This document shows positions 12,837 to 33,190 of a stretch of DNA of 34,558 nucleotides, one piece after another. The position numbers were made by a program, and so were the translations under genes. Position 1 is the first letter of the stretch. Every line of letters starts with the position of its first letter. Below the pieces are notes generated by a model, which was not told where the DNA came from, ran no database searches, and was given only the letters and a program-made list of their open reading frames with translations. Source of the DNA: an uncultured Flavobacteriaceae bacterium (GTDB taxonomy: Bacteria; Bacteroidota; Bacteroidia; Flavobacteriales; Weeksellaceae); the NCBI GenBank assembly GCA_963539275.1, contig CAUTLL010000001.1:1-34558 (forward strand), written 5' to 3'.

Positions 12837-12860
12837 TGTAAAAAAATTATTGGTATTAAA

Positions 12861-14083: not shown

Positions 14084-14668
14084 TTAGTTATGTAAATTAG
14101 TTTGTAAAAACTCCAAAAATTGTTGTACGGCGATAAAGCGATGGCTGATTTTATTTTTTTCTTCAGGTTTCATCTCTGCAAAGGAGATTGTATAACCTTT
14201 TGGTATGAATATAGGGTCATATCCGAAGCCTTTTTCACCTTTTCTTTCATGGGTGATTTGCCCATAAACACGCCCTTCAAAATAATGAGGGATTTGTGTC
14301 TCATCTATCAAGCACATTACAGTAATGAAATAAGCTTCGCGGTTTTCTATGCCTTTCATTTCTTCCAAAACCTTGTTGATATTGGCATCAAAATCATGGG
14401 ATCCAGCATATCGAGCAGAGAAAATACCAGGGCGACCATCTAATGCAGGGATTACCAATCCGCTATCATCTCCTACACTTGCTTTTCCTGTTTTTTCAAA
14501 GCAATATTTTGCTTTGATGAGTGCATTTTCATGAAAGGTAGAGCCATTTTCTTCTATTTCTTCAAAGATATGATAATCTGTAAGGCTTGTGAGGTAATAG
14601 TTTTCTCCTAATATTTGTTGGATTTCTTCTTTTTTATGTTGGTTATGAGTTGCTAAAAGTATTTCCAT
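14084..14668 (-). CDS. rdgB: non-canonical purine NTP pyrophosphatase (RdgB/HAM1 family)
   Basis: 194 aa with the motifs LLATHNQHK, DDSGL, PGIFSARY and GFGYDPIF. Confidence 0.88.
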   Translation of the reverse strand: MEILLATHNQHKKEEIQQILGENYYLTSLTDYHIFEEIEENGSTFHENALIKAKYCFEKTGKASVGDDSGLVIPALDGRPGIFSARYAGSHDFDANINKVLEEMKGIENREAYFITVMCLIDETQIPHYFEGRVYGQITHERKGEKGFGYDPIFIPKGYTISFAEMKPEEKNKISHRFIAVQQFLEFLQTNLHN

Positions 14669-14680
14669 ATTTACTTTATT

Positions 14681-15442: not shown

Positions 15443-15641
15443 CGTTATTTATTTTTTATAATTAGAATTATGATTTGAAATTTCTACTTAAAAATTAGAA
15501 TATCAAAGTAAAATTTTTCTTCAAAGATAAGGTTTATTATTAAGATTTACCATAGTTATAGGGAATAGAGTCTAATGATTAGGCTAAAATAACGAAGTGT
15601 TTAGGTCTGGAGGTGCAGTTTTATGCTCGGGAGATGATATT

Positions 15642-15756
15642 TTTAGGTTCTGAACCTAAAATTTTACCTTGACGACCTAAATGTTTTACCTTCATCACCT
15701 AAAAACTTCGCTTCATTACCTAAAAATATCATTTCAGAACCTAAAATATGATATAG
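15642..15756. repeat. five degenerate direct repeats with about 21-bp phasing, core ACCTAAA, preceded by an inverted copy
   Basis: ACCTAAA starts at 15654, 15675, 15697, 15718 and 15739, giving spacings of 21, 22, 21 and 21. The palindrome TTTAGGTTC-T-GAACCTAAA lies at 15642..15660. Confidence 0.75.
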
Positions 15757-15761
15757 AAAAG

Positions 15762-15800
15762 AAAAATAAAAAGCCTCCGAATATAAAATATTTGAAGGCT
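15762..15800 (-). terminator. intrinsic terminator of the glycine-tRNA ligase gene
   Basis: The minus strand reads AGCCTTC-loop-GGAGGCT followed by a T-run, 16 nt after the stop codon. Confidence 0.7.
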
Positions 15801-15815
15801 AAGCGTATCATTTAG

Positions 15816-17357
15816 TTATATCTTTGATAATAAGTTTCTGAAATTCACTTTATCATCAATGATTTGTCTAAGGTTAGATACTGGTACTCTTTCTTGTTCC
15901 ATGGTATCTCTGTGTCTTATCGTTACCGTGTGGTTAGTAAGCGTATCATGGTCTATGGTGATGCAGAAAGGCGTGCCTATGGCATCTTGTCTTCTGTATC
16001 GTTTTCCGATGCTGTCTTTATCTTCATAGATGAGGTTGAAATCAAGTTTCAAGTCATTGAAGATTTTTTCTGCATATTCTCCCAAGCCATCTTTTTTCAT
16101 CAGAGGTAAGATAGCAGCTTTTACAGGTGCTAGGGCAGGTGGGAGAGAGAGTACCGTTCTCTCGGAGCCGTCTTCTAGTACTTCATCTTTTAGGCAGTGA
16201 GAGAATAGAGCTAAGAATAATCGGTCTAAACCTACGGAAGTTTCTACCACATAAGGCACATAACTTTCATTTCTTTCAGGGTCAAAGTATTGTAATTTTT
16301 TACCTGAATATCTTTCATGAGCGGAGAGGTCAAAATCCGTTCTGGAATGGATACCTTCTAACTCTTTAAATCCGAATGGGAATTTGAACTCAATGTCCGC
16401 AGCGGCATTGGCATAGTGAGCCAATTTTTCATGGTTGTGGAATTTGTAATTCTCCGCTCCAAGACCAAGGGCAAGGTGCCAATTAAGTCGTTTTTGTTTC
16501 CATTCTTCATAGAATTGAAGTTCTGTGCCTGGCGGTACGAAGAATTGCATCTCCATTTGTTCAAACTCTCTCATTCTAAAAATAAATTGTCTCGCTACAA
16601 TCTCATTTCTAAAAGCTTTACCAATCTGAGCAATCCCAAAAGGCAATTTATGTCTAGATGTTTTCTGTACATTGAGATAGTTCACAAAAATACCTTGTGC
16701 AGTCTCTGGGCGAAGGTATAAATCCATTGCATTTTCTGCGGCAGCACCTAATTTAGTCCCAAACATAAGGTTGAATTGTCTTACTTCTGTCCAGTTTTTA
16801 GAGCCTGTATCAGGGTCAGAGATTTCTAGCTCTTCTATTAGGGCTTTTACATCGGCTAGGTCATTGTTGTCTAGAGATTTAGCCATTCTGGAAAGAATGG
16901 TTTTCTGTTTTTCTCTATATTCTAATACTTTTGGATTGGTAGAAACGAACTGAGCCTCATCAAAAGCCTCTCCAAATCTCTTTCTCGCTTTTTCTATTTC
17001 TTTGATTGCTTTATCTTCTAGCTTAGCACAATAGTCTTCAATCAAAACATCTGCACGGAAACGCTTTTTACTATCTTTATTATCAATCAAAGGGTCATTA
17101 AAAGCATCTACATGCCCACTAGCTTTCCAAATAGTAGGGTGCATAAAGATGGCAGAGTCTAGACCCACGATATTTTCGTTAAGCTGAATCATCGCCTTCC
17201 ACCAATATTGCTTAATATTGTTTTTTAGCTCGATACCATTTTGTCCGTAATCATATATTGCAGAAAGACCATCATAAATCTCACTCGATGGGAAGATGAA
17301 CCCATATTCTTTAGCATGAGAAACTACTTTCTTAAAGATATCTTCTTGTTTTGCCAT
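15816..17357 (-). CDS. glyQS: glycine--tRNA ligase (homodimeric class II type)
   Basis: 513 aa. The sequence FRNEI..R.FIFRMREFEQMEMQFF carries class II motifs 2 and 3, and the length is typical of alpha2 GlyRS. Confidence 0.95.
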   Translation of the reverse strand: MAKQEDIFKKVVSHAKEYGFIFPSSEIYDGLSAIYDYGQNGIELKNNIKQYWWKAMIQLNENIVGLDSAIFMHPTIWKASGHVDAFNDPLIDNKDSKKRFRADVLIEDYCAKLEDKAIKEIEKARKRFGEAFDEAQFVSTNPKVLEYREKQKTILSRMAKSLDNNDLADVKALIEELEISDPDTGSKNWTEVRQFNLMFGTKLGAAAENAMDLYLRPETAQGIFVNYLNVQKTSRHKLPFGIAQIGKAFRNEIVARQFIFRMREFEQMEMQFFVPPGTELQFYEEWKQKRLNWHLALGLGAENYKFHNHEKLAHYANAAADIEFKFPFGFKELEGIHSRTDFDLSAHERYSGKKLQYFDPERNESYVPYVVETSVGLDRLFLALFSHCLKDEVLEDGSERTVLSLPPALAPVKAAILPLMKKDGLGEYAEKIFNDLKLDFNLIYEDKDSIGKRYRRQDAIGTPFCITIDHDTLTNHTVTIRHRDTMEQERVPVSNLRQIIDDKVNFRNLLSKI

Positions 17358-17374
17358 TATTGAATAATTTTGTA

Positions 17375-17382
17375 CAAAAATA
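17375..17382 (-). promoter_or_regulatory. -7 promoter box (TATTTTTG) upstream of the glycine-tRNA ligase gene
   Basis: Exact TAnnTTTG match on the minus strand, about 18 nt upstream of the ATG at 17357. Confidence 0.45.
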
Positions 17383-17404
17383 AGTATTTTTGATTGAATA
17401 TTAA

Positions 17405-17431
17405 ATAAAAAAACACTCTCTACAGAGAGTG
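17405..17431 (-). terminator. intrinsic terminator of the 277-aa secreted-protein gene
   Basis: The minus strand reads CACTCTCT-GT-AGAGAGTG followed by T7-8. Confidence 0.75.
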
Positions 17432-17447
17432 CTTTGTATAACTTAGA

Positions 17448-18281
17448 TTAATTAAGTGTTTTTAATAGTTGTTCTAAGGCTTGTTTATATGTAGCGTTGC
17501 TATTTCCTGAACCGGAGCTCCTTCCTCCTTGATCAAAATTTAGCTCTACGAAGTTTACTAAATCTCTTTTACCTACTAGGAGTGTAAATACCCATGTACC
17601 ATTTACTGCTGTACCAATATCAGTAGGCACGCTAGGATCAGTTCTTGTTAAGGACATACTAGGATAGTCTGCTTCAACTGCCCAATTAGAACCGCTCTTT
17701 TTTAATTTAACATTAGGAGGTGCTACTCTAGCAGAATGTAGGGAAGTATTTTGGGTTCCATAAGAATAATTAGGGATAGCACCTCTGTTAGCTACGAGCG
17801 CTGTTTTATCATCTGGTGTTACCAGAGTATAATTCATCATCGCTACAGCATATTTATTATAATCTATACCTGTATCAAATGTACTAATCCAATCTTGGTC
17901 TACATTACTAACTTTAAGAGTGATAACGCTAAGAGTACTCGTAATAGGAGCACCTTGATAGACATCACCTACACTATTAATGACAAGAGGTCTATAGTCT
18001 GTATACTTAGTTTTAGCCTGAGTATTACCTCCTAAATCTGCATCCATGGCAGAATTTACATTCTGGTCATATTGTGGAGTGTTTACCAATCTTAATGGAG
18101 GTTTCCCATCATTATCCGCAGAGTTCTGAACCGTTAATGCTCTTGTAGGAACATCTGTATTTACCCCTACTTTCTTTCCTGTTTTTGTTTTGGCTTTTGC
18201 CTCATCAATAGTCTGAGCCTTCGTATGTGCTCCGAATAAAGAAAGAAAAGCAATGCTTAAAAGAATAAACTTTTTCTTCAT
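17448..18281 (-). CDS. secreted hypothetical protein
   Basis: 277 aa with a cleavable signal peptide (MKKKFILLSIAFLSLFGAHTKAQ). I recognise no family. Confidence 0.7.
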   Translation of the reverse strand: MKKKFILLSIAFLSLFGAHTKAQTIDEAKAKTKTGKKVGVNTDVPTRALTVQNSADNDGKPPLRLVNTPQYDQNVNSAMDADLGGNTQAKTKYTDYRPLVINSVGDVYQGAPITSTLSVITLKVSNVDQDWISTFDTGIDYNKYAVAMMNYTLVTPDDKTALVANRGAIPNYSYGTQNTSLHSARVAPPNVKLKKSGSNWAVEADYPSMSLTRTDPSVPTDIGTAVNGTWVFTLLVGKRDLVNFVELNFDQGGRSSGSGNSNATYKQALEQLLKTLN

Positions 18282-18446
18282 TGTATTATAATTGAGGCTG
18301 CAAAAGTATTTATATTTTTCTTATTCTGTAAATTTTCTATTTTGTTCTTAATCAGTAGTTTTTATATGTTTTTTTTATCATGAGAGATTTTTAGGATAAA
18401 AAATAAAATAGAGAAATTAAACAGTGAAATATATATGATTATTTCC

Positions 18447-18454
18447 TATATTTG
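18447..18454 (+). promoter_or_regulatory. -7 promoter box (TATATTTG) for the 169-aa gene
   Basis: Exact TAnnTTTG match 58 nt upstream of ATG 18512. Confidence 0.45.
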
Positions 18455-18511
18455 TAAGGAATAGAAATACAGTCATCATCATCTTTGAAACCAATTTAAT
18501 ATGATATCAAT

Positions 18512-19021
18512 ATGAGTATTTTAAATTTAAACAGTACGCATCTGACTGGTGAGCAAGTGAAGGCCATCAGTGATGCTTTGGGGGTGTTAGAAAAGGCATT
18601 AGCTCCATTGACTATCAATCTCACCGCAGAGGATAGGCATAAATACGGTAGGGTGAATGAGCAGAATAAGCTTTTCATCAATAAGATTCATGATTTCTTA
18701 AAGGCACAGCCTGAGCTGAAATCTCCAGATGTGGATTGGGTAGAGTTTGAGAAAGATTTTAAGAGTAGAGAGGAGCTGGAAAAGATACTGAATAGGCTCA
18801 GCTCAGCGATAACGAGAGTGAATAACTCAAAAATCTTGCATGATTTTGATAACTACCAAGACGCCTTAGAAGATTATGCTTATGCTTCCTTTCGGGCACG
18901 CTCCAAACAGGTGGGATTTGAGAATAAATACAATGAATGTAAGCAGTTCTTTGCTAAATCTCGTAAAAAAGTAGCGACCGAACCGTCAAAAGATACTCCG
19001 AATAAAGAACCTCAAGCCTAA
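18512..19021 (+). CDS. hypothetical protein
   Basis: 169-aa ORF, helical and charged, with its own promoter-like box and a strong terminator. Confidence 0.7.
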   Translation: MSILNLNSTHLTGEQVKAISDALGVLEKALAPLTINLTAEDRHKYGRVNEQNKLFINKIHDFLKAQPELKSPDVDWVEFEKDFKSREELEKILNRLSSAITRVNNSKILHDFDNYQDALEDYAYASFRARSKQVGFENKYNECKQFFAKSRKKVATEPSKDTPNKEPQA

Positions 19022-19033
19022 TATCTATAAAAA

Positions 19034-19055
19034 GCACCTCCAAAGGTGCTTTTTT
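19034..19055 (+). terminator. intrinsic terminator
   Basis: GCACCT-CCAA-AGGTGC followed by T6. Confidence 0.8.
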
Positions 19056-19062
19056 ATTATCC

Positions 19063-19167
19063 ATATTAGCATTTTGCTGGTCAATATGAGCAATTTGCTG
19101 GTCAATATGAGCGATTTACTGGTTCAAATGAGCGATTTGCTGATAAATATGAGCATTATTAAGCTGT
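19063..19167. repeat. tandem repeat, 5 x 21 bp (consensus about ATATGAGCGATTTGCTGGTCA)
   Basis: Units are at 19063-83, 19084-104, 19105-25, 19126-46 and 19147-67. The first four are close copies and the fifth is degenerate. Confidence 0.9.
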
Positions 19168-19213
19168 TTTATATCTAAAATACAGAATAGAGTAGGAGAC
19201 TAAACGAAAGAAC

Positions 19214-19245
19214 CCCTTTTCTTAATCAGGAAAGGGTGTTTTTAA
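19214..19245 (+). terminator. terminator-like hairpin downstream of the 21-bp repeat array
   Basis: CCCTTTTC-TTAATCA-GGAAAGGG (one G.U pair) followed by TGTTTTT. Confidence 0.5.
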
Positions 19246-19423
19246 TTGTTTCTTTCATTTGTTGTACCATTTTTTATATATCATAAAACCAAAATACCCT
19301 TATTCTCATGAATAAAACCTAAAATGGCATCATCATAAGATAAAAAACTCATTTGATTTTCAGTAAGATAACATGTCTAATAAAAAAAGAAGCGATAAGT
19401 TTTGGAGTTAATGAAAAAAAAAC

Positions 19424-19448: not shown

Positions 19449-19520
19449 AGACCCATGGTGTAATTGGTAACACACCTGATTTTGGTTCAGTCATTCGGGG
19501 TTCGAGTCCCTGTGGGTCTA
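19449..19520 (+). tRNA. tRNA-Gln (anticodon UUG)
   Basis: Folded by hand. The acceptor stem AGACCCA/TGGGTCT is 7 bp and U8 and A14 are present. The D stem is GTGT/ACAC. The anticodon stem is CCTGA/TCAGT with loop TT-TTG-GT. The T arm is CGGGG-TTCGAGT-CCCTG and the discriminator is A. No CCA is encoded. Confidence 0.9.
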
Positions 19521-19750
19521 CAAAATGGCCAATTAAGGCACAAGAAATTAACAAACAGCTTATTTTAAACGGTTTATAGAAGTTTAATTAAGTTGTTTTT
19601 TGTTTTATATGACACCGAAAAAGACACAGAGCTATTTTTTTAGTGTCATATTTTGCAAAAGGCATCTTCAAAATATTGAATTGAAGCATGTTAGAGCAAT
19701 TTCATTCCGTAGAAAATTTACAGGCACTCTCTAAAAAGATATATGTGCCT

Positions 19751-20866
19751 ATGAATGTAAGATTTTATTTAAAAAATTATCTCAACAAAGAGGGAAAATC
19801 CCAAGTTTACCTTAGTATATCTTCTGAAGGTAAGAGAGATAGACTTCCATTGGATGTTTTTGTGCGACCAGAGAACTGGGATAAAACGAAACAAAGAGCA
19901 AAAGTAAAGACCGAGAATAGCGATACGATTAATCTTATTTTAGATCAAGCATTTGCTAAGATTTCTGATATCCGAGTGCATTATCGCTTATCTAAAATAC
20001 ATCTTTCAAGAGAAAAATTGATAGAGGAATTTCAGAATAAAACTCCCAATTATGATTTTATTTCTTTTATGAAATATCATACTGATAATTTAATATTAAA
20101 ACCTAATTCTTATAGAAAACATCAATGCGAGATAGGAAAATTATCGGAGTATAAGAAGTTTATTCCTTTTTCAGAAATAACATTGGAGTTTATTAATAAT
20201 TATAGAGGATATTTATCCAAAATTAAAAAGAATGCTCCGACAACCATAGCCTCATCAATAAAAATTATCTTGAAATTTTTGAAGATAGCAAAAAAGTATG
20301 GAGTATTTCTAAATGTAGATCTATCGGATATTAAACCTGGAAGTACCAAAGGCAATAGAATCAATCTCACGATAGAGGAAGTAGATCGGTTAAAATCTTA
20401 TTATGATAGCGGATTTATAAAGCCACATCATCGCTTAGCATTAGGATATTTTTTATTTTCTTGTTATACATCTTTGCGGATTTCAGATATTAAGAAATTG
20501 AAAAGAGAGGATTTGGGAGGCAATACCATCACTTATTTAAGTACTAAAACCAATCATAATCATACCCTTATCATCAATAAAACAGCGAAAAAAATTCTTA
20601 ATGAAAATGAAGATTTATTTATAAAATGGGTAAGTGATCAGAAAATAAATCAGGCATTGAAAGAAATAGCGAGTATTTGTAGCATAAAGAAAAAAGTACA
20701 TTTCCATGTTGCGAGGCATTCTTTTGCGACCAATTTTCTCCGCAAAGGAGGTAAAATAGAAGACTTGCAAACTATTATGGATCATAGCGATATTCAGACT
20801 ACCATGGTCTATGTTCACATCGTAAAAGCAGAGAGTATGCAGAGCATGTATCTAATGGATGATTAA
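19751..20866 (+). CDS. site-specific tyrosine recombinase / phage integrase (Bacteroidota type with an N-terminal arm-binding domain)
   Basis: The C-terminal catalytic signature is ..LRISD.., HVARHSFAT, ..DLQTIMDHSDIQTTMVYVH (R..H-x-x-R..H..Y). The N-terminus MNVRFYLK.. is typical. The track start 19688 is an upstream alternative. Confidence 0.9.
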   Translation: MNVRFYLKNYLNKEGKSQVYLSISSEGKRDRLPLDVFVRPENWDKTKQRAKVKTENSDTINLILDQAFAKISDIRVHYRLSKIHLSREKLIEEFQNKTPNYDFISFMKYHTDNLILKPNSYRKHQCEIGKLSEYKKFIPFSEITLEFINNYRGYLSKIKKNAPTTIASSIKIILKFLKIAKKYGVFLNVDLSDIKPGSTKGNRINLTIEEVDRLKSYYDSGFIKPHHRLALGYFLFSCYTSLRISDIKKLKREDLGGNTITYLSTKTNHNHTLIINKTAKKILNENEDLFIKWVSDQKINQALKEIASICSIKKKVHFHVARHSFATNFLRKGGKIEDLQTIMDHSDIQTTMVYVHIVKAESMQSMYLMDD

Positions 20867-20870
20867 AATA

Positions 20871-20907
20871 ATTGACACCAATTAAATAAAAATTGGTGTC
20901 AATTTTA
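20871..20907. terminator. bidirectional terminator between the integrase and the convergent small-gene pair
   Basis: Perfect 13-bp stem ATTGACACCAATT/AATTGGTGTCAAT with loop AAATAAA, in AT-rich flanks. Confidence 0.8.
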
Positions 20908-20909
20908 TA

Positions 20910-21149
20910 TTAGGATAAATTATTGATGAGTAGCCCAGTTTCTTCGGGGTAATATTCTAGGATAAATGAGAGCCTTAAAGAGAGTGAGACCACTTCTTTT
21001 AGGATAGTTTTTTCTCTTTCTGTGATATTCCCAAAGTTAGGCAAATGCTCTGTTTCTATTTCATAGAGAGTTTTTTGGACATCATTGTCTTTGAATAGCT
21101 CCATTTGGCAACTGAACCACCAGCTGAAATCGTCATTGAATTTTTCCAT
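20910..21149 (-). CDS. acidic 79-aa phage protein, proximal copy of a duplicated gene
   Basis: The ORF is translationally coupled to the upstream gene by a TAATG overlap. It is near-identical to residues 1-77 of ORF 32407..32700. Confidence 0.7.
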   Translation of the reverse strand: MEKFNDDFSWWFSCQMELFKDNDVQKTLYEIETEHLPNFGNITEREKTILKEVVSLSLRLSFILEYYPEETGLLINNLS

Positions 21150-21419
21150 TACGCATCATATTTTTGGTGAAACAATCTGAGCATATTCTTGTAAGCCTGA
21201 GGGAAAGAACTGCCCCATGCATGGGCTCTTTGTGTAGGAGAGATGAAAGCCACCTTGTAGATTCCTTTATCACAGCTCATCTGGAGATGCCCACCATACA
21301 GCCTTGCAAATGCCAGTGGCTCTATGAGTTTTTCTTCTCTTTTGAATAAACTTCTTAAACTCTCTAAAAGTGTAACTTTTCTGCTTTGCACCGCATTACT
21401 ATTCTTCGTGCGTGGTGCT
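20912..21419. repeat. long direct repeat, copy 1 (partner at 32463..32970, offset 11551 bp)
   Basis: Compared by eye, there are 5 mismatches, all within 20912-20988. Positions 20989-21419 (431 bp) appear identical to 32540-32970. Confidence 0.9.
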
Positions 21420-21439
21420 TTGGTTTGATTGTTAAGCAT
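21149..21439 (-). CDS. basic 96-aa phage protein, proximal copy of a duplicated gene
   Basis: The ORF starts MLNNQTKAPRTKNSNAVQSRKV... The track start TTG 21448 is probably spurious. ATG 21439 corresponds to the ATG of the distal copy. The two proteins are identical from residue 8 onward to ORF 32700..32990. Confidence 0.7.
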   Translation of the reverse strand: MLNNQTKAPRTKNSNAVQSRKVTLLESLRSLFKREEKLIEPLAFARLYGGHLQMSCDKGIYKVAFISPTQRAHAWGSSFPQAYKNMLRLFHQKYDA

Positions 21440-21607
21440 ATTAATCAATTAAAAATTTATTTCCCAAATACAAAAAACCCCGTTAGGAGGTGCTTAACAA
21501 TCATTTAGGGAAACGATTTGTGTAGCCTCTCGACTACACCCTCCTTCAGGGTTATAATATAAACAAATAAAAAAGTTTTCTAGGGATTTTCCCTAAACAT
21601 TGTTAAG
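21440..21607 (-). promoter_or_regulatory. structured 5' leader or cis-antisense RNA with a terminator-like end, proximal version
   Basis: Three segments on the minus strand define it: A at 21610..21588, anti-segment B at 21513..21490, and start region C at 21439..21422. B pairs with either A or C. The long-range helix CCC-UGAA-GGAGG / CCUCC-UAAC-GGGG is followed by U6 (P at 21551..21539, P' at 21490..21478). An inner hairpin capped by GAGA lies at 21539..21520. The TSS is not determinable from sequence. Confidence 0.55.
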
Positions 21608-21612
21608 CATTG

Positions 21613-21620
21613 CAAATATA
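21613..21620 (-). promoter_or_regulatory. -7 promoter box (TATATTTG) driving the proximal leader and gene pair
   Basis: Exact TAnnTTTG match directly after a terminator. The 23-nt context TGCAAATATA[A/G]GAATAAAAAAAT is shared with 33141..33163. Confidence 0.55.
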
Positions 21621-21623
21621 AGA

Positions 21624-21654
21624 ATAAAAAAATTCCCTGCAAGTTTTTGCAGGG
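21624..21654 (-). terminator. intrinsic terminator after the 58-aa ORF
   Basis: The minus strand reads CCCTGCAA-AAAC-TTGCAGGG followed by AATTTTTTT. The same hairpin recurs at 34532..34551. Confidence 0.8.
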
Positions 21655-21660
21655 GAAATT

Positions 21661-21837
21661 TTAGTTTTTTTTATGGTCTATATTATGGAGTAATAATCCC
21701 AGCAGACCAATAGTAAAGATGATTTTTCCTAGAACAAGGTAGTCTTCTTGCTGTGGCTTACGCCCTACAAAAACCAATAAAAGCCCTACAAAGAATAAAA
21801 AAATGTAGGTTATTCTTATAATAACATTTTGTATCAT
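21661..21837 (-). CDS. 58-aa two-TM membrane protein (below the ORF-track length cutoff)
   Basis: Hand translation gives MIQNVIIRITYIFLFFVGLLLVFVGRKPQQEDYLVLGKIIFTIGLLGLLLHNIDHKKN*. The ATG lies 1 nt after the TGA of the upstream ORF (TGATATG). A terminator follows the stop. Confidence 0.55.
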   Translation of the reverse strand: MIQNVIIRITYIFLFFVGLLLVFVGRKPQQEDYLVLGKIIFTIGLLGLLLHNIDHKKN

Positions 21838-21838
21838 A

Positions 21839-22195
21839 TCAATTTATTTTTAATAAGCGGTAAATAAACTCTATCACTTTCTCTGTATGGTATCCAATGA
21901 CAGAAGCCACCACTATACCTAAAAAAGCCAAAGCCCATTTTTTTAGTCGGTTCTGTGGCTTATCCATTCTCTCCGCTTCTTTTATATTTTTTACTTTCAG
22001 ACCTTTTTCTGTGAGCCTTATTTTATTGTCATCGCGGTTTTCTATTAACCCCAAGGCGAAGAGCTTCATTTTCACTTGCCTAAAATATCTCTCATCATTT
22101 TTTACCAACTGCTGATAATACACTGCGGATATTCTTCCTCCTTTTTCTTGGGTTTTCTGCAAGACTTCATTACAGAGATTTTCTAATTCTTCCAT
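21839..22195 (-). CDS. winged-helix-like protein with a C-terminal membrane anchor (118 aa from ATG 22195; track start 22234)
   Basis: The sequence MEELENLCNEVLQKTQEKGGRISAVYYQQLV...LGLIENRDDNKIRLTEKGLKV has a wHTH-like pattern. A C-terminal hydrophobic helix WALAFLGIVVASVIGY follows. A TATCTTTG box lies upstream at about 22283..22290 on the minus strand. Confidence 0.6.
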   Translation of the reverse strand: MEELENLCNEVLQKTQEKGGRISAVYYQQLVKNDERYFRQVKMKLFALGLIENRDDNKIRLTEKGLKVKNIKEAERMDKPQNRLKKWALAFLGIVVASVIGYHTEKVIEFIYRLLKIN

Positions 22196-22291
22196 CGCCA
22201 ATATATTCCTTTTCACAAAAATAATAAAAAGCACATTATTTTCATGAGAAAACGCCGTGCTTTTTTAGGAGTATATTAGCCTTACAAAGAT

Positions 22292-22319
22292 AAAAAAAAT
22301 CCCCACCGCTGGGGTGGGG
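22292..22319 (-). terminator. intrinsic terminator after the 81-aa gene
   Basis: The minus strand reads CCCCACC-CCAGC-GGTGGGG followed by T8. Confidence 0.8.
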
Positions 22320-22361
22320 ATTAGTGTTAAATTTAAGCAATAGTTATGAAAACTATTTTAT

Positions 22362-22607
22362 TTATAGCTGGTTGGCAGTCTTGCGGATACGCTCCGAGAG
22401 GTCATATAATGCCCCTTTGAACTGCTCCATTTCTTCGTGAGAAAATCCACCAGCATTTCCGTTTCCATCTATACCATCTATTTTATGGTATATCCAAGAT
22501 GGAGAGCGGTCAAAATATTTTTTAGACAATTTAGCCCAAGATATATCAAGAGCAATATCATTTAATGTTTCCTTTACAGATTGTTTTTTACTAGCAGTTA
22601 TTTCCAT
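22362..22607 (-). CDS. 81-aa hypothetical phage protein
   Basis: A clean ATG ORF bracketed by terminators on both sides. I recognise no family with confidence. Confidence 0.6.
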   Translation of the reverse strand: MEITASKKQSVKETLNDIALDISWAKLSKKYFDRSPSWIYHKIDGIDGNGNAGGFSHEEMEQFKGALYDLSERIRKTANQL

Positions 22608-22622
22608 ATTTTATATTTTATT

Positions 22623-22647
22623 AAAAGCACCACCGCATGGGCGGTGC
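22623..22647 (-). terminator. terminator-like hairpin after the 65-codon ORF
   Basis: The minus strand reads GCACCGCC-CATGC-GGTGGTGC followed by TTTT, a short U-run. Confidence 0.55.
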
Positions 22648-22653
22648 TTGAGT

Positions 22654-22851
22654 TTAGTCTTCGTAAAGAAGTTTTTCAAATAATCTAATTATCCATTCTT
22701 CTAATTGTACTGAATAATTGTGTTTGGATTTCTTGAAGTTTCTAATGGCTTCAATGAGCTCCTTTTCTTGTTCTGTTAGTTTCAGAACTTTATATATTAA
22801 ATTTAACACTACAAATATACTACGAATATTCGTATTTTGCAAATTTTCCAC
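22654..22851 (-). CDS. 65-codon ORF of doubtful coding status (GTG start)
   Basis: The ORF is in the track, but an exact TATATTTG box (minus strand, 22819..22812) sits inside its first 15 codons and no in-frame ATG follows it. The locus could instead produce a short non-coding transcript. Confidence 0.35.
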   Translation of the reverse strand: MENLQNTNIRSIFVVLNLIYKVLKLTEQEKELIEAIRNFKKSKHNYSVQLEEWIIRLFEKLLYED

Positions 22852-22872
22852 TGACTTTTTTTATAAAAAACT

Positions 22873-24678
22873 TCAATAAGTCTCGGTTTCAATTTCTATG
22901 GAATAAAGGTTTTCGGAGAGGGATTTTTTTGTCCAAGATTTGATTTGGTGGCGTTTTCCATAGCAGAAAATTTCGGAGCGAATGTTATACTTTCGGATTT
23001 TATTTTTCTCGGTGATGAAGGTCCATTTATAGACATAATTGGTCAGCCTGTTTTGAAACCAAGGGTTGAGATGTTTGGCGAGATTCTCATCAATAAGCCC
23101 TGGCGGATTACTAGCATGATTGTCTCCATAATCATTAAGTCCATCGTAATGAACCAGCATCAGAGCGGTATCATCACAAGCTTTAGCCGTCCAAGCCCCA
23201 CGAAATAGCACCATGGGAAGTGTGAAGATATTGATACTGATTTCGGTGGTTTTTTTGGGGGTATTTTTTTCATTGATATGATAGCCATTTTCATCAAAGA
23301 AGATGTTTTTAATCTCCACGGCATCATTTTCAGGGAAGGTAATGTTAAAATTCACTTTATCGTTAAATAACCGAGTTGGGTTTTCTACTTCAAATTGTCT
23401 AAAATCCTCTAATTGAGTTCCATCATTTTGAATCACTTTGATGGTATTCATGATAGCTTTATTTCCCTTAAATTCAAGGTCATAATTTCTTAAATTTTTA
23501 ATGGTCGTTACTAGTTCGCCAAAGGTCATCTCAGGGACGGCTTTTTTGAGATTAACCCTATTTTCATTGAAGATATAGGGAATGGGGGTTCCTGCTTTGG
23601 TGTGCTGTCTTATTGGTGTGATGTAGATTTGTGCCACGCCTATGCTCTTGCCTTGGCTATCGTTTTGATTTCTTTTGAAAATACCAGAGTAGTTGAAGGT
23701 AAGCACGGCACCTCTTTCGGCTTCATTTTCGGAGATGGAAAAAGTGCTGATGGCTTTATGGCTTTGCTCTATGGGAATATCGGTGATGTTTTTCGCTTTC
23801 ACGAGGAGTTGTGCGGAGTTATCAATTCCATTCACAAGGAGACGATACTTTCCAGGGGCAGTGATTTTGATAAATTTTTCCCACCGCCCTGTATTGCCAT
23901 CCATATCGGTGTATTCTTGATGATAAACGATGAGTTTATGCTCTTTTTGTTCGCCTGTATTATGGTATTCTTTACTGCTCCAAATGAGCCTTTGTTTGAG
24001 ATGTTTATCCTCTAAAATTTCTCCATCAAGGATAAACCCCGCATCTTTGAAGCCTACTTTTAGGACATAAAGAAGGTAGGGTAAAGGGTGGATGATATTC
24101 TTATTATAAACATCTAAATCATTCTCAATTCTATTTCTTGGGAAGGCTTTCCCTGTGGTGTTTTCTAGATCCGTTCTGTTATTGATCATAGAATCAAAAT
24201 ACTGATAGGCTTCATCTTCTAGGTTGTATTTATCGGTGTAGAGTTTGGGGAAATTATAGTTGGTTTCAGGATATTTTTTGGAGACGATTTCATTGGCATG
24301 GTCATAAATATCATTGACTTTAAGGTCTAATAGAGGCAAATCTTCCAGTTTGGTTTCAAAATTAGGGAGTGTTTCAAAACCACTGTCAATCTGTATTTTA
24401 ATAGAATTCTTGTTAAATTCCATAATCTCTAATTTGGCTTTCCTAGGAGAGCCTTCAAAGATATGAATGCCCTCATGGTATCGTTTTAAATTTTTATTAT
24501 TTAGGGAAGAATATTGCCCAAATTTACTCAAAAAATCACGAGTATAATGATAGTCAATGGGTAAGGTGTAGTTTGTCCAAAAACTATCCTTAAAACGAGG
24601 ATTTTCTTCTACATAAGTGAAGGCGGACTCGTGGAGAGGGATTTCTATGCCTTCATTGGTGATAAATTTATCTTTCAT
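22873..24678 (-). CDS. large phage tail, baseplate or receptor-binding module protein (601 aa)
   Basis: It is the second large ORF downstream of the tape measure gene and overlaps the upstream ORF by 11 nt. The function is assigned from gene order only. Confidence 0.6.
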   Translation of the reverse strand: MKDKFITNEGIEIPLHESAFTYVEENPRFKDSFWTNYTLPIDYHYTRDFLSKFGQYSSLNNKNLKRYHEGIHIFEGSPRKAKLEIMEFNKNSIKIQIDSGFETLPNFETKLEDLPLLDLKVNDIYDHANEIVSKKYPETNYNFPKLYTDKYNLEDEAYQYFDSMINNRTDLENTTGKAFPRNRIENDLDVYNKNIIHPLPYLLYVLKVGFKDAGFILDGEILEDKHLKQRLIWSSKEYHNTGEQKEHKLIVYHQEYTDMDGNTGRWEKFIKITAPGKYRLLVNGIDNSAQLLVKAKNITDIPIEQSHKAISTFSISENEAERGAVLTFNYSGIFKRNQNDSQGKSIGVAQIYITPIRQHTKAGTPIPYIFNENRVNLKKAVPEMTFGELVTTIKNLRNYDLEFKGNKAIMNTIKVIQNDGTQLEDFRQFEVENPTRLFNDKVNFNITFPENDAVEIKNIFFDENGYHINEKNTPKKTTEISINIFTLPMVLFRGAWTAKACDDTALMLVHYDGLNDYGDNHASNPPGLIDENLAKHLNPWFQNRLTNYVYKWTFITEKNKIRKYNIRSEIFCYGKRHQIKSWTKKSLSENLYSIEIETETY

Positions 24679-26734
24679 TTTGCTTGATGTTAAATTCTAA
24701 ATCTGTGGAGTAGAGCTGTTCGGCTGTATTAAAAATCTCATTTTTCTTGTTCATAGGTCGGGCTTTAATGATTTTATTTTCAATGATAATGAAGCAAAAA
24801 CTACTTTTTATAAGTGCGTTGATGAGCTCTATTTCTTCTCTTAAAATCCAGCCCGTGTTTAGTACCAGAGTTTCTGTTTCTAAAGCTCCAAATTTCTCCC
24901 CATTGGTTTCATTGGTGATATGCGTAAAATCAAATTTTCTGTGATAATCTCCTGTGCAGGTGAGCCAGTCTAAGACCAAATTTTGATTCTCAAAAAAGAG
25001 ATGAATGAGCCTTCCACCAGGTGGGTTAGGGAAAGGAATGAAGCTTATTTCCCCAGCAGAAATAGTTTCCTGATGATTGGCATTAAAAAGCTTTCGCTCA
25101 AAATCCAGAGAGCAGATTTCAAACTGATGAGAGAGCGTAGGCTTTGGTAAAGAATAAGCACTGAAAATCTCATCAAAGGCTCGTTTAGAAGTGAGAGCAT
25201 CGGTGTTAATTCTGATTTTACTCTCGGGGAAAGTTCTCCTTTTGGCAAAATCAGTGAAAAAGGGGAAGCATTTGGGTTTCTTCCCAGGCACGAAGAAAAG
25301 ATTATTCAGCCGAGCCTCGGAGAGCTCATGATCTTCGGCATCAAATTCTTTGATGATGATATTCACAGAAGCCATGGAGAATTGGTATTGCATGAGTTCT
25401 TGGAATTTTATTTCTTGGGCATGAATGAAAAAATCCTGAATTTCTTCCCCAGGGTAGAAAATGATTTCTTCTCCGAAATAATGCTGAGCGTATTCTTGTC
25501 TCTCGCGATATTCCTTGTCATATCCACGATAATACATCTCCAAAATCATGGTTACATAAGATGCTTTTGGATTGGTTTTGGTGATTTTTACTTGATTCGG
25601 ATCAAGGGCAAAATAATAGGCTTTATCTTTAAAATCACTTTCAATGTTTCGGATGACTTTTAGGTTGATTTTCACTCTTTTTTCTACCGAACCAGAATGC
25701 AGGACGATTTCCCCTGAATATTTCCCCAAGTCTAAAACTTCGGCAGATTTGGTCTGGAAAGTAAGTTCATTTCCTTTAATCTGAATATTTTCTAGGAAAG
25801 AGGGCGTAGCTCCCAAAGTAATCGGTAAAGAGAGAGGATTGAGAATGCTCACACTTCCCATTTTTTGCTCTCCTAAAGTTTTGGAAATGACAAAATCAAA
25901 TTCAGTAGAAGTAAGTGAAAAATCAGGCTTTTGAGTGCCATCAATAAGATTAAAAATGATAGGAATGCCTTTGTAATATTTGCCTTCTTTGAGGAGTTCA
26001 AGCTCCCAGTTATAAATTCCATCGGGCATATAAGGAACAAGCTCCGTAGTGTCAGGGGATGGTTTGAAATTGATGATGGATTTGCCAGAGCTTTGGTCAA
26101 GAGAGATGGCACACAGTCCCCAGCCTTTCACATCATTAAAAGAAATATCAGAAATCTCAATAGGGAGATCTCCTGAAAATTTCCAAGTAGATTTATTGAA
26201 AATAATATTACGAGGCACGAGGTCAATATCCACCGTGGTGGTGCTTTCTTTGACATTGAGATTAACTCTCACGGGCGGTGAGTTTTCTATGAATATTTTT
26301 TCTTTTCCTTTCTGTTCATAGGCTTTAATGATGATGGAGGCAGTGTGTATACCTTTTGGGAGTAGAGAAAGGTTTCTATAAGAAACCTCCATAGGATAAT
26401 TGATAGGATTGATCCCCGAGAAGCGGTTCATGATCAAATTTGGAGATTTGAAATCTAACCAATTGTTTGCCGTTCCTTGATATAAAACATCTACTTCATA
26501 GATGACATTATCGTAATCTCTAGCACTCCATTCAGAGAGTTCAGGGAAAGTGATACTCATTTTAATATGTGGGACATTGCCCCCAGGGGTATAGTTACTG
26601 CTGATGTTTTCAGGGGTGATTTGCCACTCTCTGATAGGCACCGTTACAGTATAATATTCATTATGTCCATCGGCAGATTCCTGTCCTGTAGGAACCCAAA
26701 CGCTCTCTTTTCTTTCTTTAAATCTTACTGCCAT
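24668..26734 (-). CDS. large phage tail protein (688 aa; sits where distal-tail or tail-tip genes usually lie)
   Basis: It is the first large ORF downstream of the tape measure gene. The function is assigned from synteny only. Confidence 0.6.
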   Translation of the reverse strand: MAVRFKERKESVWVPTGQESADGHNEYYTVTVPIREWQITPENISSNYTPGGNVPHIKMSITFPELSEWSARDYDNVIYEVDVLYQGTANNWLDFKSPNLIMNRFSGINPINYPMEVSYRNLSLLPKGIHTASIIIKAYEQKGKEKIFIENSPPVRVNLNVKESTTTVDIDLVPRNIIFNKSTWKFSGDLPIEISDISFNDVKGWGLCAISLDQSSGKSIINFKPSPDTTELVPYMPDGIYNWELELLKEGKYYKGIPIIFNLIDGTQKPDFSLTSTEFDFVISKTLGEQKMGSVSILNPLSLPITLGATPSFLENIQIKGNELTFQTKSAEVLDLGKYSGEIVLHSGSVEKRVKINLKVIRNIESDFKDKAYYFALDPNQVKITKTNPKASYVTMILEMYYRGYDKEYRERQEYAQHYFGEEIIFYPGEEIQDFFIHAQEIKFQELMQYQFSMASVNIIIKEFDAEDHELSEARLNNLFFVPGKKPKCFPFFTDFAKRRTFPESKIRINTDALTSKRAFDEIFSAYSLPKPTLSHQFEICSLDFERKLFNANHQETISAGEISFIPFPNPPGGRLIHLFFENQNLVLDWLTCTGDYHRKFDFTHITNETNGEKFGALETETLVLNTGWILREEIELINALIKSSFCFIIIENKIIKARPMNKKNEIFNTAEQLYSTDLEFNIKQNER

Positions 26735-27131
26735 ATAAATAAGGGATTAAATTTTTATAATACTTTTTTTGTTCTTTTTCAATATCAAGGGAGGGGATTC
26801 TCCAAATCTCAATGCAGATTTTTTCCTGTGAGTAGAGAATCATTCGGCGGGGGCGGTGTTCTATCATTTCGACATTTTTCATTTGAGTTAAATATCTTTC
26901 TAAATGAGAAAAAGCCCCACGAACGACTGCAAAATCTATATCTTTCGGCTGATAATCTTCCGAAAATTCTCCAGCGAAGATTTTTGCCACAGAACCGATA
27001 ATCATCAGCTCACAGCCTGTTTCTTCCTTGACCCACTGCGAGAGTTCATCACAAGTTTTGTTAATATTTTCATTTTCAAAAATTTTCAATCTTTGAAAAT
27101 AATTGATTTTTATATTTTTATTTTCTTGCAT
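26718..27131 (-). CDS. 137-aa protein with a minimal nucleotidyltransferase (pol-beta fold)-like motif
   Basis: The stretch LMIIGSVAKIFAGEFSEDYQPKDIDFAVV fits the hG[GS]...D-x-D NTase pattern. The ORF overlaps the tape measure stop by 14 nt and the next ATG by 17 nt. Confidence 0.5.
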   Translation of the reverse strand: MQENKNIKINYFQRLKIFENENINKTCDELSQWVKEETGCELMIIGSVAKIFAGEFSEDYQPKDIDFAVVRGAFSHLERYLTQMKNVEMIEHRPRRMILYSQEKICIEIWRIPSLDIEKEQKKYYKNLIPYLYGSKI

Positions 27132-32158: not shown

Positions 32159-32456
32159 AGACCACCCACTTGAATACTCTACCTGTCTCTATTTTTTCGT
32201 ATTCAGGAGGGAGATTCTTTTCTTTATCTCCCTCAAAAATACAAATTTTATCGTAAAGTATTTCTAATTCTTGCCGAAAATTAAGCTCCTTCATCACTTC
32301 ATAAATATCATGCTCACCGATGGGCTCATTGGGGATAATCCCTTGCATCATCGTTAAGATAGACTGCGTGGTGAGTAGCCTTTTTTCTTCTTTGGAGCCT
32401 ACCTGGTTATAATACCTCAGGAATAGCTCCTTGATGATTTCCTTGTAATCTTCCAT
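32136..32456 (-). CDS. 106-aa hypothetical phage protein
   Basis: An ATG ORF in the operon, overlapping the downstream ORF by 23 nt. Confidence 0.65.
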   Translation of the reverse strand: MEDYKEIIKELFLRYYNQVGSKEEKRLLTTQSILTMMQGIIPNEPIGEHDIYEVMKELNFRQELEILYDKICIFEGDKEKNLPPEYEKIETGRVFKWVVYEKNNGI

Positions 32457-32700
32457 AGTATGAGGATATATTATTGATGAGTAGCCCAGCTTCTTCGGGG
32501 TAATATTTTAGGATAAATGAGAGCCTTAAAGAGAGCGAAACCACTTCTTTTAGGATAGTTTTTTCTCTTTCTGTGATATTCCCAAAGTTAGGCAAATGCT
32601 CTGTTTCTATTTCATAGAGAGTTTTTTGGACATCATTGTCTTTGAATAGCTCCATTTGGCAACTGAACCACCAGCTGAAATCGTCATTGAATTTTTCCAT
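32407..32700 (-). CDS. acidic 97-aa phage protein, distal copy of the duplicated gene with an 18-aa C-terminal extension
   Basis: Same as 20910..21149, except that the stop TAA is replaced by TCA. The frame therefore runs 50 nt into the next gene. Confidence 0.65.
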   Translation of the reverse strand: MEKFNDDFSWWFSCQMELFKDNDVQKTLYEIETEHLPNFGNITEREKTILKEVVSLSLRLSFILKYYPEEAGLLINNISSYYGRLQGNHQGAIPEVL

Positions 32701-32970
32701 TACGCATCATATTTTTGGTGAAACAATCTGAGCATATTCTTGTAAGCCTGAGGGAAAGAACTGCCCCATGCATGGGCTCTTTGTGTAGGAGAGATGAAAG
32801 CCACCTTGTAGATTCCTTTATCACAGCTCATCTGGAGATGCCCACCATACAGCCTTGCAAATGCCAGTGGCTCTATGAGTTTTTCTTCTCTTTTGAATAA
32901 ACTTCTTAAACTCTCTAAAAGTGTAACTTTTCTGCTTTGCACCGCATTACTATTCTTCGTGCGTGGTGCT
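32463..32970. repeat. long direct repeat, copy 2 (partner at 20912..21419)
   Basis: See copy 1. Confidence 0.9.
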
Positions 32971-32990
32971 GGTTTGATGATGTTTAGCAT
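32700..32990 (-). CDS. basic 96-aa phage protein, distal copy of the duplicated gene
   Basis: The ORF starts MLNIIKPAPRTKNSNAVQSRKV... It is coupled to the next gene by a TAATG overlap. Confidence 0.7.
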   Translation of the reverse strand: MLNIIKPAPRTKNSNAVQSRKVTLLESLRSLFKREEKLIEPLAFARLYGGHLQMSCDKGIYKVAFISPTQRAHAWGSSFPQAYKNMLRLFHQKYDA

Positions 32991-33137
32991 TTTATATTAA
33001 TTAAAAATAAAAAATCCCCGATAATGTGGATTGTCGCTAAACATCATCAATCAGAAAAAGATTAATAACCACACTTCACGGGGAAGACTTTTATTTCGTT
33101 AAAATTATATCAGATTATTTCTGATGATGATATTTAG
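32991..33137 (-). promoter_or_regulatory. structured 5' leader or cis-antisense RNA with a terminator-like end, distal version
   Basis: Three segments on the minus strand define it: A at 33140..33121, anti-segment B at 33054..33035, and start region C at 32990..32969. The long-range helix CCCCG-UGAAG-UGUGG / CCACA-UUAU-CGGGG (33084..33069 / 33029..33016) is followed by AUUUUUUAUUUUU. The architecture matches 21440..21607 but the sequence differs. Confidence 0.55.
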
Positions 33138-33142
33138 CACTG

Positions 33143-33150
33143 CAAATATA
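33143..33150 (-). promoter_or_regulatory. -7 promoter box (TATATTTG) driving the distal leader and tail-side operon
   Basis: Exact TAnnTTTG match directly after a strong terminator. Confidence 0.55.
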
Positions 33151-33154
33151 GGAA

Positions 33155-33190
33155 TAAAAAAATAACCACCAAATAAAAAGGTGGTTATTT
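33155..33190 (-). terminator. intrinsic terminator after the 75-aa membrane-protein gene
   Basis: Perfect 10-bp stem AATAACCACC/GGTGGTTATT with a 9-nt loop, followed by a T-run on the minus strand. It begins right after the stop codon. Confidence 0.85.

Follow-up and report, generated by a model that had tools for sequence, protein, structure and literature searches.

We know of next to nothing on regulation in temperate phages of the Bacteroidota, and of very few cis-regulatory RNAs described for this phylum; the closest described systems are the immunity region of phage P4, the hok mRNA family, trp-type attenuators and the immI region of phages P1 and P7. Here we analyse a direct repeat in a 34,558-nt stretch of DNA (the window, i.e. 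the whole stretch analysed) from an uncultured Flavobacteriaceae bacterium (GenBank assembly GCA_963539275.1, contig CAUTLL010000001.1, positions 1 to 34,558 of the forward strand), the two copies of which, A and B, carry a coupled gene pair, g1 and g2, behind a leader RNA with a length of ~150-170 nt. Three matched segments are present in the leader: F, the first ~15-25 nt of the predicted transcript; X', in mid-leader and complementary to both F and S; and S, which comprises the U and G of the AUG (nt +2 and +3) together with the next 4-5 codons of g1. We report that F, X' and S covary in an alignment of 19 distinct sets of these segments ("codes"), and on balance we favour the reading that the repeat represents two paralogous self-contained regulatory cassettes, each made up of promoter, leader RNA switch, g1 and g2, including the workings proposed below.

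In P4, seqC lies on a translation start, and phiR73 is heteroimmune. The P4 region (seqA - CI RNA/seqB - seqC) resembles the present leader in that an antisense segment within a structured leader is complementary to an upstream and a downstream direct repeat, in that pairing is linked to an early stop in transcription of the operon that follows (here by prediction), and in that relatives differ in the matched sequences (PMC4825925). The present leader differs in that it has no sequence or Rfam kinship with P4, is found in Bacteroidota, and would control a tail operon or a stand-alone two-gene cassette where P4 controls replication genes; moreover, its own F is predicted to mask X', and the first gene encodes a protein with a predicted fold like that of double-stranded RNA-binding domains (dsRBDs). 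For hok mRNA, Gultyaev, Franch and Gerdes reportedly described "coupled covariations" in 1997. The 5' end of hok (tac/ucb/fbi) mRNAs alternates between partners and so decides whether the start is sequestered (PMC9841398), and there as here the alternative helices share one strand, giving coupled three-way covariation. The present system has neither a small hydrophobic toxin nor a separate antisense gene; it has a 5' leader with a terminator-like stem in place of the 5'-3' fold-back of hok, and the AUG and first codons, not a Shine-Dalgarno (SD) sequence, would be sequestered.

Trp-type attenuators (1:2 / 2:3 / 3:4) share with our leader the mutually exclusive helices, one being a stem with a U-run, but in the present leader the structural gene itself supplies the third partner, at its start region, and the segments that pair are hypervariable and re-coded from one relative to another. 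Nor is there a conserved leader peptide; this idea was dropped because only some leader classes have AUG or GUG at the start of F, class III having AGC there. For P1 and P7, Citron and Schuster are said to have found in 1990 that specificity differs by matched changes. In immI (c4 - icd - ant), as in the present case, a leader-encoded antisense element is placed to block the small genes behind it (PMC8198154); the differences are that our leader has no Rfam C4 match, that none of the searches relates g1 or g2 to Icd or Ant, and that the operon is a late, structural one. At gathering score, Rfam matched only the signal recognition particle (SRP) RNA and tRNA in the whole window, and permissive scans of both leaders against its families, including C4 antisense RNA, leaders and riboswitches, gave nothing above 25 bits, compared with gathering scores of at least 39 bits. 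The leader would act like known alternative-pairing leaders, yet it is a member of none of them by sequence or model.

Self-comparison of the window gave 20908-21207 versus 32459-32758 as its top direct repeat, and pairwise alignment lengthened this match to 20908-21419 (copy A) versus 32459-32970 (copy B); by exact count 506 of the 512 nt are identical (98.8%), and the start-to-start distance is 11,551 nt. All 6 mismatches are confined to 20911-20988, the perfect core comprises the 431 nt of 20989-21419 (100%), and outside the repeat the identity collapses within a few bases on both sides. The first-pass annotation, made from the letters alone, had described a 508-bp direct repeat with its copies 11.55 kb apart, 431 bp identical by eye and 5 mismatches clustered at the 3' end; the repeat, the 431 identical positions and the 3' clustering stand, while the exact span is 512 nt and the mismatches number 6. 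It had further described a basic first and an acidic second gene joined by TAATG, each pair under a dedicated RNA switch, and two copies that flank the whole tail block; charges, lengths and overlap are all borne out, each pair does lie behind its own RNA element, and the two copies do flank the tail block. Both g1-g2 pairs are encoded on the minus strand, as follows (aa, amino acids):

20908..21419, minus strand: repeat copy A, on the integrase side, with g1 from codon 8 on and g2; 506 of 512 nt identical to copy B
32459..32970, minus strand: repeat copy B, at the head of the tail operon, from self-comparison and exact count
21149..21439, minus strand: g1A, 96 aa, basic, predicted dsRBD-like fold, ATG start at 21439
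20910..21149, minus strand: g2A, 79 aa, acidic, predicted to be all-helical, TAATG overlap with g1A
32700..32990, minus strand: g1B, 96 aa, the same as g1A from residue 8
32407..32700, minus strand: g2B, 97 aa, with an 18-aa low-confidence extension and a 50-nt overlap with the next gene

In each copy g1 and g2 share one base (TAATG). The g1 protein has 16 K+R and 6 D+E (isoelectric point, pI, 10.2), and g2 has 15 D+E against 7 K+R in copy A or 9 in copy B (pI 4.4 or 4.8). The length of g2 depends on base 20911 alone, where copy A has the stop codon TAA and copy B the sense codon TCA; elsewhere too the state of this base follows the context, with a stop in integrase-side copies and a sense codon in tail-operon copies. 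As start of g1A we prefer the ATG at 21439 to the TTG at 21448 given by the open reading frame (ORF) tool, because all homologues begin there and because this ATG lies within the predicted X':S helix.

The terminator of the upstream gene and, after it, a promoter of the form TTG-N19-TATATTTG lie ahead of each copy. The flavobacterial sigma-A -7 box, TAnnTTTG, spans -12 to -5 (PMC9723704), and judged by its sequence each copy carries a consensus Bacteroidota sigma-A promoter; the two promoters also surface as repeat family D2 in the self-comparison of the window. The upstream elements are:

21613..21642, minus strand: promoter A, with TTG (21642-21640), a 19-nt spacer and TATATTTG (21620-21613); predicted transcription start ~21608
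33143..33172, minus strand: promoter B, with TTG (33172-33170), a 19-nt spacer and TATATTTG (33150-33143); predicted transcription start ~33138
21440..21608, minus strand: leader A (class I), with F at 21609-21595, X' at 21505-21491 and S at 21438-21424
21552-21539 and 21490-21478, minus strand: 5' and 3' halves of the leader A stem, with an inner hairpin between them and a U-run at 21477-21472
32991..33138, minus strand: leader B (class II), with F at 33139-33125, X' at 33049-33035 and S at 32989-32975
33085-33068 and 33030-33015, minus strand: 5' and 3' halves of the leader B stem, with a U-run at 33014-33009
21635..21654, minus strand: terminator hairpin of the upstream gene, the 3' side of which overlaps the -33 element of promoter A

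For comparison, 41 related loci were fetched (labelled L001 upward). The covariation alignment was register-anchored and holds 19 distinct codes from these loci, with F anchored on the promoter and S on the ATG, both independently of pairing. Across the 19 codes X':S is 92.3% paired, compared with 35-47% when the segments are slid against each other, and 12 of its 15 pairs are compensatory; for F:X' the corresponding figures are 93.0% and 13 of 15. For neither helix did any of 500 shuffles match the observed paired percentage or covariation score. All 26 distinct leaders have an X':S helix of 12-15 contiguous bp and an F:X' duplex of 20-25 nt, and the full architecture is retained in two distant relatives with 33-44% protein identity; shuffled leaders attained the observed pairing value in 0-1 of 200 cases. 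Averaged over 17 codes, X':S gives -19.0 kcal/mol in cis versus -7.8 kcal/mol for non-cognate combinations, and F:X' -28.8 versus -12.5 kcal/mol; the cognate X' is the best or tied partner of S in 17 of 17 codes. Codes A and B of the window are orthogonal (-17.8 and -22.7 kcal/mol in cis, -9.4 and -10.0 kcal/mol in trans). The leader is thus a compact RNA element whose unusually clean three-way covariation points to two alternative helices sharing one strand. As a side observation, column 8 of F is U where column 8 of S is C in 10 of the 19 codes (AAAU versus AAAC; e.g. 33132 versus 32982); one G of X' therefore makes a G-U wobble with F and a G-C pair with S, a systematic asymmetry of the alternative helices.

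F begins at about the predicted +1 in 27 of 28 leaders, without any searching, because the -7 box of the promoter fixes the start. An automated scan found a two-part stem followed by a U-run (gap of 0-1 nt) and enclosing X' in its loop in 18 of 19 leader types; the remaining one, L014, is a failure of the scan, its stem and U-run being visible by eye. A simple terminator scanner calls a short version in leader A and none in leader B. The stem sequences vary among leader classes in a compensating way (CCCUGAAGGAGGG/CCUCCUAACGGGG, CCCCGUGAAGUGUGG/CCACAUUAUCGGGG, GCCUUGAUAAGUAGUGG/CCACGAAAGUCAAGG and others), and leader B lacks both the inner hairpin and the AGGAGG/CCUCCU stem of leader A. In folding energy the two window leaders lie far below their shuffled controls (z = -3.9 and -3.5). 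With each state enforced, the mean energies are -47.9 kcal/mol for F:X', -45.0 kcal/mol for X':S and -40.6 kcal/mol for the stem, compared with -49.9 kcal/mol for the unconstrained fold; in these folding models the F:X' and X':S states are nearly isoenergetic, and F:X' cannot nest with the stem. The F:X' helix encloses the 5' half of the stem and excludes its 3' half, and it is the minimum free energy fold of most isolated leaders. By prediction the leader has the hallmarks of an attenuator with an intrinsic terminator, namely a stem directly before a U-run and an alternative helix that excludes this stem. A nucleotide profile search (nhmmer) gave 40 leader matches, every one directly 5' of g1 and none an orphan leader; scans of IMG/VR for the leader-scaffold motif gave no contigs beyond the known set.

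The covarying segment S also accounts for where the repeat ends. The N-termini of the two g1 proteins read MLNNQTK and MLNIIKP, with codons 2-6 differing because they are S, and the genes are identical from codon 8 on, and leaders A and B belong to different classes; identity stops at codon 7 because the first codons constitute S and are part of the private RNA code of each copy, which gives a cause to the halt that the first-pass annotation had placed at codons 3-7, where the variable leader begins. A perfect 431-nt core within a 512-nt repeat is the mark of a recent gene-conversion tract in an older, more diverged repeat, and we infer that this tract cannot extend into S without uncoupling S from its own F and X'. 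Gene conversion would keep the coding parts of the copies alike and would be halted at codon ~7 by code matching, which would explain the knife-edge boundary of the tract. Likewise, an RNA that dictates the first codons would explain a hypervariable, disordered N-terminus on an otherwise conserved protein; the RNA would be free to do so since the 13 N-terminal residues are disordered in the structural model of g1.

Gene conversion or module exchange had been proposed in the first-pass annotation, and both the perfect core and a block swap in a relative argue for it. L014 is ~97.6% identical to the window on both flanks, yet a wholly different 213-nt block (window 33133-32921) takes the place of the stretch between the transcription start and codon ~23 of g1; module exchange is thus seen directly, and the locus gives independent support to leader and g1 N-terminus forming one unit. 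The g1 of L038 is only ~33% identical, yet its leader is 82% identical to leader B and differs from it in code at three matching sites. Between close pairs the changes are concentrated in the code segments, with 6 of 39 code positions differing versus 1 of 159 elsewhere for window A and L001, and 5 of 39 versus 1 of 179 for L016 and L020; within leader classes the enrichment of variable sites in code segments is modest (Fisher p 0.02-0.18, column-wise), so that the strong signal is confined to the closest pairs. In addition, a DNA contig of run X6 on 33057-33163 has leader B behind a terminator context typical of integrase-side cassettes (loose end TCCCTGCAAGGGGTTTTTAGAAAAAAAATA), which suggests that leaders also recombine relative to their upstream flanks.

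Neither g1 nor g2 matched Pfam, NCBIfam, PHROGs or PADLOC, and 31 members of the g1 family gave nothing consistent against Pfam and PHROGs, with no match to PF00035. Among 5.8 billion proteins g1 forms just 28 clusters, g2 has 5 clusters, and a g1 profile search of 1.84 billion representatives gave 29 matches at E < 1e-3. The AlphaFold2 model of g1 has a mean predicted local distance difference test (pLDDT) score of 79.7, with values > 90 over residues 40-96; its predicted secondary structure (H14-48, E51-57, E60-66, E71-76, H79-94) is alpha-beta3-alpha, and the N-terminus specified by the code is disordered (first 13 residues). The top Foldseek matches in the PDB are almost exclusively dsRBDs (DCL4, NF90, Xlrbpa, RDE-4, ADAR2, RNase III and Staufen), with YfiA and SRP9/14, other RNA-binding alpha-beta folds, also listed; probabilities reach 1.0 with E-values of just 0.05-0.7. 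Against BFVD the matches are DRBM proteins and small uncharacterised phage proteins.

The likeness to dsRBDs thus concerns residues ~40-96, predicted to form alpha-beta-beta-beta-alpha with dsRBDs as nearest structural neighbours. It extends to a conserved A74-x-G76-x-S78-x3-A82 before the last helix, which resembles the corresponding region of the dsRBD consensus, G-x-G-x-S-K-K-x-A-K. Unlike dsRBDs, g1 has an extra long N-terminal helix and a basic disordered arm. We therefore describe g1 as predicted to resemble a dsRBD in fold and do not call it a member of the dsRBD family. The g2 model has four helices at moderate confidence and no meaningful structural neighbour was found for it; g1 and g2 are coupled in most loci, although g2 escapes detection in L039, and in the L015 group it has diverged too far to be detected. 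One g1 homologue (P0028, 154 aa) is fused after residue ~57 to a fragment of a DDE transposase (PF01609), which indicates that an insertion sequence has entered a g1 gene in some metagenome.

We propose that in the ON state F:X' would pair and block the stem, so that RNA polymerase would read through with the AUG free; in the OFF state the stem would form and transcription would terminate at the U-run, and in read-through RNA X' would pair with S and block initiation. Targeting of the AUG and first codons would suit the phylum because Flavobacteria use no SD sequence and tune translation via structure around the start codon (PMC6847099). Copy B would gate the ~10-kb tail operon and copy A g1-g2 only, with two mutually orthogonal codes in one genome insulating the two switches. 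Most likely g1 binds the long perfect leader duplex and shifts the switch; as reader of its own leader it would be the most economical candidate, since a perfect duplex of 20-25 bp is a natural ligand for a dsRBD-like protein. The outcome would be feedback on the tail operon (auto-regulation) and possibly activation of cassette B by g1 from cassette A, which is conceivable because the g1 proteins are identical from residue 8 on while the RNAs are insulated. The g2 protein may be an acidic helical partner or modulator of g1.

Expression data are sparse, with only 8 sequencing runs containing any words of the locus. The soil metatranscriptome X1 has a 159-nt contig that is 100% identical to 32964-33122, i.e. 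leader B into the first codons, and no second X1 contig falls on 21500-34558, the 13 kb that were examined, a result compatible with a leader more abundant than any other prophage transcript. The run listing has none for the leader of copy A.

Several observations weigh against two switch cassettes as described. The transcription start, the termination point and the switch states are all predicted from sequence, and X' was picked as the best complement of S, which biases the alignment towards structure. The dsRBD assignment is a predicted fold with weak Foldseek E-values (0.008-0.7), and by sequence g1 matches neither Pfam dsrm nor any PDB chain (one PDB profile match was non-significant); g2 is a tiny family (5 clusters) with a moderate-confidence model and no structural match. 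Moreover, phages of the L015 group manage with a single cassette, which leaves the role of copy A unaccounted for, and the X1 contig is single, unstranded and of depth 3.7, passes the U-run into the coding sequence and could include DNA.

Among other readings, trans immunity of the P4 type would have the exposed X' of a terminated or processed leader pair with F and S of transcripts with the same code, resident or superinfecting, and so force termination and block translation of g1; code diversity would then be heteroimmunity, and cassette A an exclusion device against phages with that tail-leader code. We regard this as possible, though on present evidence rather improbable. The layout of one antisense segment between two complementary repeats is that of P4 (PMC4825925), with the downstream repeat here on the translation start, and the closest relatives differ mainly in three code segments on a fixed scaffold, which looks like selection for new specificities; against this, templated repair among three repeats could re-code them without selection. 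The class of leader A is used by the tail operons of another phage group (L015, L022, L023, L025, L028-30), and the integrase-side code of L001 pairs with the tail-operon start of L015 almost as with its own (-17 versus -18 kcal/mol), but codes A and B of the window match neither each other nor any tail code exactly. That modules of the cassette A type persist beside integrases in tail-less islands (L003, L010), and that the leader is the sole prophage RNA detected in one metatranscriptome (13 kb examined), speak for this reading as well; a terminated leader alone, however, is predicted to prefer the closed F:X' in nearly all types, which masks X', so that trans action would need processing, and Rfam C4 and the other antisense families gave no match. 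A broader version would see a re-programmable RNA "address code" in which three matched 13-15-nt segments are re-coded on a fixed scaffold, providing each phage, or each cassette of one phage, with a private channel for control of termination and translation of the late (tail) operon, and P4-like trans immunity or exclusion among related Flavobacteriaceae phages, with g1 reading the duplexes; this we offer as a speculative extension that may well not hold.

That g1 and g2 are virion-assembly or structural tail proteins (e.g. connector or chaperone-like), with the leader a mere attenuator and copy A a functionless by-product of recombination homogenised by conversion, appears unlikely: g1 always heads the tape-measure operon in phage contexts, no regulatory domain was detected by sequence and single-copy phages exist (L015), but in cassette A promoter and ORFs are still intact and the private code matches in full, the module is kept with the integrase in tail-less islands (L003, ~7 kb; L010), leader and g1 are strictly coupled and move as one module, and the predicted g1 fold is RNA-binding and unlike known tail-protein folds. 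The toxin-antitoxin idea of the first-pass annotation, here taken as a HicA-like, toxin-first pair restrained by the leader, fares worse still and we judge it very unlikely. The pair is basic/acidic and translationally coupled, HicA toxins likewise have a dsRBD-like fold and are common cassettes of these prophages, and copy A occupies the cargo slot that holds HicAB in relatives; nevertheless, hhalign of the g1 family against 7 HicA proteins of the same prophage group gave a probability of 0.2%, the invariant HicA G-S-H motif is not in the g1 alignment and there is no PF07927 match, nor one in PADLOC, Pfam, NCBIfam or PHROGs to such a pair. The top 50 structural matches shown are canonical dsRBDs without a HicA, g2 is missing in L039, and an ancestral place heading a structural operon is atypical for a toxin-antitoxin pair. 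An assembly artefact, chimeric or collapsed, was raised solely because the first-pass annotation listed it; nothing was found in its favour. The context of copy A with its own flanks recurs in independent assemblies (L001, L010, L003), as does that of copy B (L007, L008, L014, L035 and others), so both junction contexts are present in independent assemblies from different samples, the copies differ at 6 positions and their flanks are wholly different; an artefact is effectively refuted.

Two regulatory cassettes under three-way codes remain our preferred reading, and the literature search gave nothing comparable for Bacteroidota. Four traits appear not to have been described in combination: a three-way code extending into the first codons, re-coding while the scaffold stays fixed, tail-operon control, and a coupled orphan protein with dsRBD-like fold. 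Moreover, g1 would add a new small viral protein family with such a fold, as far as the model goes. Should the codes work in trans, these phages would fall into immunity groups set by their codes, and engineering of Bacteroidota would gain naturally orthogonal RNA parts. If true, the address-code reading would make this the earliest described case in Bacteroidota of phage immunity or late-gene control by RNA, and the first anywhere that joins such control with a stand-alone prokaryotic viral dsRBD-like effector.

The cassettes reside in a temperate siphovirus-type prophage, as seen from a tyrosine integrase beside a tRNA, a tail module with a tape measure, and relatives in IMG/VR (L019, L020). 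Its other features are:

19688..20866, plus strand: tyrosine integrase (Arm-DNA-bind_5, SAM_5 and Phage_integrase by domain matches)
19449-19521: tRNA-Gln on the attachment side, adjoining the integrase
20870..20904, unstranded: bidirectional terminator hairpin between g2A and the convergent integrase gene
20906..22856, minus strand: variable cargo slot with cassette A and 58-aa, 131-aa, DUF5053 and 65-aa genes, a block missing from L032
22873..32456, minus strand: tail operon downstream of cassette B
27118-31218, minus strand: tape measure, 1366 aa

The operon reads g1, g2, 106-aa, 159-aa, 127-aa, tape measure, 137-, 688- and 601-aa genes, with cassette B (32990..32407) as its first gene pair. 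Cassette A (21439..20910) is stand-alone and convergent with the integrase, the bidirectional terminator lying between them. The closest genomic relatives are metagenome-assembled genomes (MAGs) labelled uncultured Flavobacteriaceae, and homologous contigs are present in IMG/VR; megablast and tblastn searches of 50,697 phage records gave no match. The host part of the window (1-19400) occurs mainly in sequencing runs from people, so the host is probably a human-associated Flavobacteriaceae. The g1 gene is found at the head of the tape-measure operon in window B, L007, L008, L014, L015-L031, L035, L037 and L039, and because this position is kept down to 33-53% protein identity it is the ancestral one. 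It is convergent with the integrase in window A, L001, L003/4 and L010/11. The integrase-side copy is optional, L015 running directly from tail genes to integrase. L007 shares 98% identity with L001 over 8.5 kb, and L035 has an overlap with the head of L001, so that this lineage, too, would seem to have two copies, one in the tail operon and one beside the integrase, as pieced together across different samples.

The same annotation had suggested RecA-mediated deletion between the repeats. This is possible in principle, but an A-by-B junction is found in 0 of 39 related loci; L009, a candidate for such a junction, was rejected as B-type throughout. The only deletion variant found is L032/L033, and its junctions differ from A-by-B. 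L032 (junctions at 7494/7495 and 9694/9698) and L033 represent a defective relative of the window prophage. L032 is without window 25059-32389, a gap that opens 22 codons into the 106-aa gene and closes within the 688-aa gene, so that the tape measure is gone and a 103-aa fusion ORF is left. It is also without window 20906-22856 as a block, one gap edge of which equals the left edge of repeat A, and for this reason cassette A is placed in a variable cargo slot; in L001 the slot holds HicAB.

L003 is a ~7-kb integrase island without tail genes that keeps the cassette. L010 lies at the same tRNA-Gln site and beside the same host genes as the window, with a type I restriction-modification system replacing the tail genes and the cassette kept. 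Its first 11,958 nt (1-11958) have GlyRS, TIM and Ham1 as neighbours, with an integrase 98% and a DUF5053 gene 94% identical to those of the window, and its restriction-modification system has two hsdS genes around a small recombinase (shufflon-like). In L038 (1-12059; NCBI GCA_900101995.1, an isolate), four HicA/HicB-like cassettes and two DUF5053 genes lie upstream of leader-g1; after g1 come 85-, 91-, 161- and 54-aa genes and then, at the expected place of the tape measure, a second integrase (433 aa) and an HTH_17 gene, perhaps a further element that has entered the tail operon.

Just upstream of cassette B, a 352-aa ORF (33428-34486, minus strand) matches the PADLOC candidate defence family PDC-S02 (E 1.7e-16) and phrog_10226 of unknown function (E 1.3e-55). 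Relatives carry BRCT, NYN or HicAB genes in this slot, and because its gene content varies among relatives it looks like a second cargo (moron) site before the tail operon. Between the tape measure and the 688-aa gene, the 137-aa ORF (26718-27131, minus strand) is kept in size and position in the relatives whose tail module was listed (L001, L002, L007 and L039), and has no family apart from a weak PADLOC match to AAA-Csx3 (E 0.026). Finally, the SRP RNA at 2999-3104 (minus strand) fits the Rfam "Bacteroidales small SRP" model with 94 bits while the nearest genomes are labelled Flavobacteriaceae; evidently this model spans Flavobacteriales too, or the MAG labels are loose.

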